NCBI GenBank assembly: GCA_023254095.1
Contig: JALNLM010000002.1
Coordinates: 19,538 to 83,537 of the forward strand
Origin: Candidatus Geocrenenecus huangii
GTDB taxonomy: Archaea; Thermoproteota; Nitrososphaeria_A; Caldarchaeales; Wolframiiraptoraceae
DNA length: 64,000 bases
Direction of reading: 5' to 3'
Each line of letters begins with the position of its first letter. Position 1 is the stretch's first letter. This document shows positions 4,845 to 62,289 of the stretch, piece by piece. Under the pieces are notes generated by a model, which worked only from the letters and a program-made list of their open reading frames with translations, ran no database searches and was not told where the DNA came from. Made by a program: the position numbers and the translations under genes.

Positions 4845-4978
4845 CGCCGGGGGTGGGATTTGAACCCACGAGCCCCGTTTCCCCAATAATTAATGGGGCA
4901 TCGGCTAACTCTTCTCAGTCTGACCATGCTTATTATTGATCTCGAGGCCGACCCTCTACCTGGCTAAGGTACCCCGGC
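4845..4978 (-). tRNA. tRNA-Ser (anticodon CGA) with two introns: about 34 nt in the anticodon loop and a probable 14-nt mini-intron in the variable arm
   Basis: Read by hand on the minus strand: acceptor GCCGGGG/CCCCGGC with discriminator G; D-arm; anticodon stem UCGGC/GCCGA with loop CUCGAG|A; T-arm GUGGG-UUCAAAU-CCCAC. The gene is 134 nt against about 86 nt expected for mature tRNA-Ser. Removing AUCAAUAAUAAGCAUGGUCAGACUGAGAAGAGUU at position 37/38 and AUUAAUUAUUGGGG from the variable arm leaves a canonical Ser variable arm, UGCCCCAAACGGGGCUC. Confidence 0.7.
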
Positions 4979-48094: not shown

Positions 48095-48216
48095 TAGCCC
48101 GGGCCGGATTCGAACCGGCGTCCCCGGGGGTCCCCTCATATAGATTTGATCCAGAGCCCGGGATCCCTGGCCCATACTCATCCGACCAGCATGTTTGGCC
48201 GCTAGACGACCGGGCT
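48095..48216 (-). tRNA. tRNA-Gln (anticodon CUG) with two introns: about 28 nt in the D-loop and about 21 nt at/next to anticodon-loop position 37/38
   Basis: Minus-strand read: acceptor AGCCCGG/CCGGGCU with discriminator A; D-stem GUCU...GGAU; anticodon stem CCGGG/CCCGG with loop CUCUGGA; T-arm GCCGG-UUCGAAU-CCGGC. The gene is 122 nt against about 73 nt mature. The extra sequence sits as one block in the D-loop and one after the anticodon loop. Confidence 0.7.
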
Positions 48217-62165: not shown

Positions 62166-62289
62166 TAGCCCGGGCCGGATTCGAACCGGCGTCCCCGGGT
62201 ATCCCCTCATAGCGGCCAATGATCCAAAGCCCGGGATCCATAACCCATACTCATCCGACCAGCATGTTTGGCCGCTAGACGACCGGGCT
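62166..62289 (-). tRNA. tRNA-Gln (anticodon UUG) with two introns: D-loop intron near-identical to that of the CUG copy, and a 23-nt anticodon-loop intron
   Basis: The acceptor, D-stem, T-arm and D-loop intron match the 48095-48216 gene. The anticodon loop reads CUUUGGA, giving UUG. The second intron, AUCAUUGGCCGCUAUGAGGGGAU, differs from the CUG copy. The gene is 124 nt. Confidence 0.7.

Follow-up and report, generated by a model that had tools for sequence, protein, structure and literature searches.

Two doubly interrupted tRNA-Gln genes in a Caldarchaeales archaeon: an apparently ancient D-loop intron and a mosaic of identity suggesting partial gene conversion

Introduction

The stretch of DNA analysed here (64,000 nucleotides, called the window throughout) carries two tRNA-Gln genes, with anticodons CUG and UUG, that agree exactly over their outer parts and differ in the middle, each being interrupted once in the D-loop and once in the anticodon loop. 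How have two isoacceptor genes come to share one intron and not the other: through a recent duplication, through mobility of the intron, or through exchange between two old genes? The source organism, Ca. Geocrenenecus huangii, is a member of the Wolframiiraptoraceae in the order Caldarchaeales (formerly Aigarchaeota), not of the Thermoproteales, and is no relative of Caldivirga or Pyrobaculum. The window has a GC content of about 40% and is 99.95% identical to the assembly JALNKN. The supplement of Buessecker et al. (2022) lists this assembly, with JALNKM and JALNJT, as Geocrenenecus huangii (GC 40.7%, Tengchong hot springs).

A D-loop intron combined with a canonical one is an ordinary architecture for this archaeal group and is already well described. 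The tRNA-Gln(CUG) of Ca. Caldiarchaeum subterraneum is one of three multi-intron tRNAs reported there, interrupted in the D-arm and at the canonical position with BHB motifs, in an organism that has a heterotetrameric endonuclease (Nunoura et al. 2011, PMC3082918; Sugahara et al. 2012, PMC3293823). Both the order (Caldarchaeales/Aigarchaeota) and the tRNA identity are the same as here, and the four Caldarchaeum loci in our comparison have the same two intron sites as the window genes; the Caldiarchaeum papers, however, list the gene only, and do not treat a UUG paralog, the breadth of the site, concerted evolution or a complement between intron 2 and the D-loop. A similar example is the pre-tRNA-Glu(UUC) of Methanopyrus kandleri, which has a relaxed HBh′ intron at 20b/21 together with a canonical intron, both of which the (alpha-beta)2 enzyme of A. 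pernix removes in vitro (Kaneta et al. 2018, PMC5829648). That precursor, like ours, combines a D-loop HBh′ motif with a strict canonical BHB, but it is a different tRNA from another phylum, the site is one nucleotide off by that paper's numbering, and there is neither a paralog pair nor a reported long-range complement. The present gene pair is thus a further example of archaeal tRNAs with one non-canonical and one canonical intron. What our results suggest is new, beyond the literature searched, is the breadth over which the site is conserved in tRNA-Gln, the mosaic pattern that points to conversion and a D-loop complement specific to one isoacceptor.

Results

The window is predicted to hold two genuine tRNA-Gln genes, CUG and UUG, each doubly interrupted. 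The UUG gene (62166–62289, minus strand) is 124 nt long with three exons and two introns, and the CUG gene (48095–48216, minus strand) has the same architecture in 122 nt; CCA is encoded in neither. The exons measure 22 nt (AGCCCGG UC GUCU AGCGGCCAA), 16 nt (GGAU C CCGGG CUYUGG) and 35 nt in both. In the UUG gene, exon 1 (62268–62289, minus strand, as are all features of both genes) holds the acceptor 5′ strand, the D-stem 5′ strand and the D-loop AGCGGCCAA; intron 1 (62240–62267, 28 nt) lies between A21 and G22; exon 2 (62224–62239) holds the D-stem 3′ strand, the anticodon stem 5′ strand and CUUUGG with the anticodon UUG; intron 2 (62201–62223, 23 nt) occupies the canonical 37/38 position; and exon 3 (62166–62200) runs from A38 through the anticodon stem 3′ strand, a 4-nt variable loop, the T-arm and the acceptor 3′ strand to A73. 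The corresponding parts of the CUG gene are exon 1 (48195–48216), whose nucleotide 19 is window position 48198, here C; intron 1 (48167–48194, 28 nt), which departs from the UUG copy in the final 4 nt alone; and intron 2 (48130–48150, 21 nt), again at 37/38, with the loop AAUCUAUA.

A sequence-only reading of the window had described the UUG copy as a second tRNA-Gln gene sharing 46 nt at the 5′ end and 34 nt at the 3′ end with the first, and alignment of 48095–48216 against 62166–62289 bears this out, the first 46 and last 34 nt being exactly alike. The differences are the first base of the anticodon (T in UUG versus C in CUG), the last 4 nt of intron 1 (TTAT versus CCAG), the middle of intron 2 and nucleotide 38 (A in UUG versus C in CUG), so that intron 1 is common to both genes and intron 2 is not, as had been noted. 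Equally correct were the placement of both genes on the minus strand, each with a D-loop and an anticodon-loop intron, and of a housekeeping block between them, which includes aIF2-beta, FtsY, PTH2, TruD and NuoBCD (translation, respiration and other core genes). The DNA flanking the CUG gene is unrelated on both sides to that flanking the UUG gene, and the 21-nt core of intron 1, CATGCTGGTCGGATGAGTATG, occurs exactly twice in the 64-kb window against 0.01 copies expected by chance.

Intron 1 can be folded on a central helix of 4 bp, which in the UUG gene is GGCC (62270–62273) with GGUU (62242–62245) and in the CUG gene the palindromic D-loop GGCC with the GGCC at the 3′ end of the intron; the last nucleotides of the intron are GGUU AU and GGCC AG respectively. 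On the 5′ side of the UUG intron there is a bulge AA|A and an inner 6-bp stem CAUGCU:AGUAUG closed by the loop GGUCGGAUG, so the 5′ site lies in a 3-nt bulge with the 4-bp helix on one side and this stem on the other. The 3′ site, A-N|G (A U|G in the UUG gene), belongs to an internal loop that adjoins the D-stem and faces the unpaired A14-G15-C16. Since this is not a clean 3-nt bulge, the predicted motif is of the relaxed HBh′ class and not a strict BHB, and cleavage at the 3′ site is presumed by analogy with other relaxed motifs. Intron 2 has the strict form (hBHBh′) in both genes, with two opposite 3-nt bulges, a 4-bp helix and flanking helices. The 4-bp helix joins C32–U35 to a GRRG stretch, rich in purines, close to where the intron ends; GG|A and AN|N38 form the bulges, and UCA(U):(A)UGA makes up the inner stem. 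In the UUG gene these become a central helix CUUU:GGGG, bulges GG|A and AU|A, an inner stem UCAU:AUGA and the loop UGGCCGCU; the central helix is weak, one G:C and three G:U pairs, and is not chosen by RNAfold.

Removing both introns in silico leaves molecules of 73 nt that ARAGORN identifies as tRNA-Gln(ctg) and tRNA-Gln(ttg). With intron 1 alone removed, it finds canonical introns of 21 nt (CUG) and 23 nt (UUG), recovering our hand assignment, so that both the UUG reading and the register of the anticodon arm hold. The spliced cloverleaves are perfect, with G18G19 and an intact T-loop; their anticodon loops are CUCUGGC and CUUUGGA, the discriminator is A73, and the first pair is A1-U72, an identity element for GatDE. 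The spliced D-loop AGCGGCCAA is the same as in intron-less relatives such as L039 and L042, and the two mature tRNAs differ solely at positions 34 (C or U) and 38 (C or A). Each gene would be transcribed as a precursor with two protein-spliced introns, both of which a putative (alpha-beta)2-type splicing endonuclease and a putative RNA ligase would excise to give the 73-nt tRNAs that differ at 34 and 38 only. The (alpha-beta)2 endonuclease is the type found in Aigarchaeota, and it cuts relaxed D-loop HBh′ introns (PMC5829648, PMC3082918).

Two other foldings were considered and set aside. An alternative D-arm that takes the D-loop-like motif CUGGUCGGAU within the intron as the real D-loop needs two more introns without splice motifs, and it disagrees with the intron-less relatives, which have AGCGGCCAAGGAU. 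A pairing of the intron-1 loop with the 3′ strand of the T-arm (GGUCGGA:UCCGGCC) was rejected because it lacks covariation, relatives with GGUCAGA in the loop keeping the same T-arm.

The age of the D-loop intron was approached by searching one genome per GTDB species with the first 18 nt of the gene. This gave at least 118 loci, to which the two window genes were added; 107 tRNA-Gln genes among the matches listed could be parsed, all of them selected for an identical 5′ 18-mer. An intron of 13–50 nt sits at exactly this D-loop site in 71 of the 107, both introns are present in 65 and no intron is found in 34, mostly from Bathyarchaeia (all among the matches listed). The lineages that carry the site, again among the matches listed, include Caldarchaeales, Nitrososphaerales, Nitrosopumilales, some Bathyarchaeia, Brockarchaeota, Pyrobaculum and Thermoproteus, and in several classes of Thermoproteota it is occupied in both isoacceptors. 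The sequence-only reading had proposed a comparison with Caldivirga, Vulcanisaeta, Pyrobaculum and Thermofilum; we used loci from Pyrobaculum and Thermoproteus, there being none from the other three genera among the matches listed, and in Pyrobaculum the D-loop site is occupied too (same matches).

The splice helix of the D-loop intron has been maintained across this range. Among the matches listed, 70 of the 71 genes form all four base pairs of the helix, and its third pair, exon to intron, is C:G in 42, U:A in 19, U:G in 10 and C:A in none (Fisher p = 2e-10, a value that ignores phylogeny). In an anchored alignment of 80 distinct genes, with exon and intron boundaries taken from the mature tRNA template and not from pairing, 99.1% of cells are paired in the proposed register compared to at most 65% when it is slid; the D-loop helix is 98.8% paired with C:G/U:A compensation and the canonical intron helix 97.5%, with U:A/C:G compensation at nucleotide 34. 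Because the same site recurs in so many genes with covariation in its helix, the intron site is far older than the paralog pair, and these comparisons argue for an ancient origin of the D-loop intron and for its vertical inheritance in the tRNA-Gln of many Thermoproteota. The earlier proposal of an intron 1 older than the separation of the two genes is therefore much better supported than had been supposed, the site being occupied in both isoacceptors across several classes of Thermoproteota.

If the site is so old, the near-identity of the two copies in one genome needs another explanation. The UUG gene has nuoD on one side and V-type ATPase genes on the other in four places: the window, locus L124, G. 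dongiae (L114) and Caldarchaeales DT_Bin_20 (L092). The CUG gene adjoins rpS15 and a DHH-family gene in both the window and DT_Bin_20 (L055); since the same gene neighbourhoods occur in other genomes, both loci are old. Intron 1 is 0.89 identical between the paralogs of the window and 0.90 between those of G. dongiae, compared to 0.74–0.81 between orthologs of different genomes. The order is reversed for intron 2, with 0.68–0.70 between paralogs within a genome and 0.78–0.96 between UUG orthologs of different genomes, so that copies of intron 1 group with their genome and those of intron 2 with their isoacceptor. DT_Bin_20 shows no homogenisation, its paralogs being 0.55 (intron 1) and 0.57 (intron 2) identical. 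From the discordance of the two introns and the unrelated flanks we infer, with moderate confidence and from short sequences (28–31 nt) in the two genomes that show the pattern, that partial gene conversion best accounts for the exact match over the 5′ 46 nt and 3′ 34 nt. The central segment, with the anticodon, the intron-2 loop and nucleotide 38, would be held specific to each isoacceptor by selection, and the data point to paralogs homogenised around a protected anticodon core. Nucleotide 38 follows the isoacceptor in other genes as well, being C in 23 of 70 CUG genes versus A in 35 of 37 UUG genes (among the matches listed); 14 of these 23 come from named Caldarchaeales lineages, the window gene included.

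The main alternative is a recent duplication of one doubly interrupted gene, after which the anticodon changed and intron 2, but not intron 1, drifted. The exact identity of both ends and the two-position difference between the mature tRNAs are what such a history would leave, but we consider it improbable, since both loci keep their neighbourhoods in other Caldarchaeales genera or species, the UUG type of intron 2 is also found in G. dongiae, Wolframiiraptor and Benthortus, many lineages repeat the C38/A38 difference, and the flanks of the two genes share nothing. Two parts of the sequence-only reading have to be amended here. Intron 1 is indeed shared, but its simple retention after a recent duplication does not fit loci that are syntenic in other genera; and intron 2 does differ between the paralogs, but not by simple drift, the UUG type being conserved across genera with its D-loop complement (below).

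We judge it less probable still that one mobile intron was inserted independently into both genes, by transposition as proposed for the Thermoproteales. In that order non-canonical BHB-type introns occur at up to three per gene, with similar introns recurring (Sugahara 2008; Fujishima 2010; PMC4033280, PMC4090602), and similar introns in different tRNAs are the hallmark of the model (PMC4033280). The window offers one such likeness: the loop motif UGGUCRGA of Gln intron 1 recurs in the canonical intron of tRNA-Ser(CGA), the Gln loop GCUGGUCGGAUGAG and the Ser sequence GCAUGGUCAGACUGAG (4919–4926) having a core of about 14 nt in common. A transposition family is defined by closely similar introns in tRNAs of different amino-acid identity in one genome (Fujishima et al. 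2010); over the window and the loci examined, this core is all that Gln and Ser share, no further tRNA of those loci has the loop motif, and the intron core has no further copy in the window. Against transposition, too, the same site is used in 71 tRNA-Gln genes (among the matches listed) from distant lineages, with lineage-specific sequences and covariation, which fits vertical descent. The hairpin loop of intron 1 contains GGYCRGA in 45 of these 71 genes, usually as CUGGYCAGA (among the matches listed), and in 34 of 34 genes from metagenomes. Five Thermoproteaceae tRNA-Gln loci have an intron at the same D-loop site; the difference from the published Thermoproteales cases is that the similar introns of the window belong to isoacceptors of one amino acid and occupy a site of long standing, a pattern that fits vertical descent with gene conversion as opposed to recent spread among unrelated tRNAs. 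That a single tRNA family has held an intron site for so long contrasts with the ‘recent transposition’ picture drawn from the Thermoproteales.

As an aside, the loop GGYCRGA resembles a generic D-loop, and the Ser gene is a third interrupted tRNA gene of the window (4845–4978, minus strand; Rfam tRNA 44.9 bits), in which 38 nt are inserted after the anticodon and 29 nt in the variable region; ARAGORN calls it tRNA-Ser(cga) when introns are allowed.

It might also be supposed that one or both Gln copies are decaying pseudogenes, rightly ignored by gene finders. Neither is reported by ARAGORN, which in default mode finds no tRNA in the 64-kb window, or by the Rfam tRNA model, which in the window finds only the third gene (4845–4978) at both the gathering and the E≤1 thresholds. 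However, the spliced products are perfect cloverleaves with the conserved nucleotides, compensatory changes maintain both helices of both splice motifs over 80 distinct genes, and the misses are explained by the D-loop intron, not by decay, which leaves the pseudogene reading very unlikely. When introns are allowed, ARAGORN miscalls the unspliced Gln genes as Leu(gag) and His(atg) with an ‘intron’ of 44–48 nt, and we rejected both calls as artefacts of the D-loop intron. A genome annotated with ARAGORN or Rfam, with no step for non-canonical introns, would thus seem to lack tRNA-Gln.

The weakest alternative, that the second copy is an assembly artefact from a collapsed or duplicated repeat, draws on two short contigs that misbehave at the shared segment, and has next to no probability given contigs of 26–405 kb from at least six samples that carry each gene in its own context with diagnostic internal differences, and relatives that have both loci. 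On contigs of 26–178 kb that encode NuoD, from four different samples, the UUG gene is always identical and has the same surroundings, and six further long contigs with rpS15 carry the CUG gene, one identically and five with a difference only at nucleotide 19. Four of the other CUG-bearing assemblies can be identified as G. huangii, JALNJT and JALNKM by name and two by 99.95% identity to the window. The concern that the pair might be an assembly duplication is thereby removed by independent contigs. In the first of the two short contigs (JGI Ga0209394_1006909) the UUG gene runs into the upstream flank of the CUG gene, and it is therefore chimeric; the second (Logan SRR7539518_377) stops exactly at the 5′ end of the gene. 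The shared repeat troubles assemblers, and long contigs are unaffected.

Nucleotide 19 of the CUG gene is C in the window and in JALNKM, as in the UUG gene, and T in five of the six other assemblies (L125–L130), which gives a D-loop GGUC with a G:U pair to the intron. The uninterrupted 46-nt identity is consequently a feature of this strain, and the C/T polymorphism could reflect a small conversion tract or a point mutation.

Taken as a whole, an account with two functional isoacceptor genes, two protein-spliced introns in each, an ancient D-loop intron and partial conversion appears highly probable to us.

The second intron of the UUG gene has a further property. Part of its loop, UUGGCCGCUA (62210–62219, minus strand), is an exact Watson-Crick complement over 10 nt of the D-loop exon sequence UAGCGGCCAA (62268–62277), the segment that also pairs with the end of intron 1. 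A D-loop complement of 6–10 nt is found in 10 of the 24 two-intron UUG genes of the GTDB set, whereas it is at most 5 nt in the other 14 and in all 41 CUG genes (in both cases among the matches listed); the CUG intron-2 loop of the window, AAUCUAUA, has none. Such matches arise in 0–2.4% of 500 shuffles of intron 2, though, as the comparative samples are related, this value and the Fisher value above overstate independence. A metagenome scan anchored solely on the D-stem, the anticodon stem and the UUG loop added 34 distinct genes, with introns of 21–36 nt and differing neighbouring stems, and all of them have the GGCCGC core, in one case as GGCUGC, where a G:U pair preserves the match. Beyond the core the complement is prolonged in one of two directions, to the D-stem side (UGGCCGCUAGA, 11 nt) or to the side of the splice site (UUGGCCGC). 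Its carriers include Geocrenenecus, Wolframiiraptor and Benthortus, three of the four genera of Wolframiiraptoraceae; Terraquivivens is not among them.

Calculated as separate duplexes, the long-range pairing comes to about −17 kcal/mol at 37 °C and −9 at 75 °C, compared to about −2 and 0 kcal/mol for the 4-bp splice helix of the UUG gene. The RNAfold minimum free energy structure contains the long-range helix in 6 of the 10 complement-bearing genes at 37 °C and 9 of the 10 at 75 °C, and never in the CUG paralogs tested; the loop-loop form that spares the intron-2 motif is a pseudoknot and so beyond RNAfold. In two long Wolframiiraptor introns, the sequence also allows the GGCC to pair within intron 2.

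Two other roles for the loop were considered. A pairing with the junction of T-stem and acceptor (CGGCC) was rejected because the Wolframiiraptor clade differs in the T-stem and keeps the loop. Haloarchaeal pre-tRNA-Trp offers the second model, an anticodon-loop intron with a conserved stretch complementary to its own exon, in the form of box C/D guides for exon positions 34 and 39. Reading either Gln intron as a box C/D guide was rejected as the boxes are absent: neither the C box RUGAUGA nor the D box CUGA is conserved in either intron over 44 UUG-type introns, CUGA being sporadic (as in L092). The Gln introns differ from the haloarchaeal one in this, in their D-loop target and in their shorter complement (6–11 nt).

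Discussion

The conserved D-loop complement in UUG intron 2 appears to be new, and we found no report of one in the literature searched. A tentative reading, possible but on balance doubtful, is that it forms a cis-acting RNA lock, in which a loop-loop helix GGCCGC:GCGGCC would sequester the D-loop and close the intron-1 site until intron 2 is removed. The lock may be the most economical reading of the complement; it would couple the two introns and make splicing ordered (intron 2 first) or gated in one isoacceptor only. Ordered removal has been described, in the literature searched, only for introns that physically overlap (PMC8450103). If true, the lock would be a simple, testable case of an RNA-encoded order of intron removal in an archaeal pre-tRNA.

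The comparative loci gave a few further observations on tRNA-Gln. Two loci from Thermoproteaceae Bin S10 and one from Pyrobaculum KC_015 have the first 22 nt of the gene through GGYCAA, followed by GGGGCCA... or CGGGCGG..., with no 3′ half of a tRNA-Gln within 260 nt; they could be genes whose D-loop intron is very long, halves of split tRNAs or fragments of genes. Thermoproteota-type tRNA-Gln genes were also seen in an Aenigmatarchaeota MAG, with the D-loop intron, and in an Armatimonadota MAG, and their placement in DPANN and bacterial bins is probably due to mis-binning. Finally, six Bathyarchaeia loci have a tRNA-Gln(CUG) with a third insertion, located inside the T-loop (for instance GTTCGAAAGCCTCCGGAAATCTCC) and additional to the D-loop and canonical introns.
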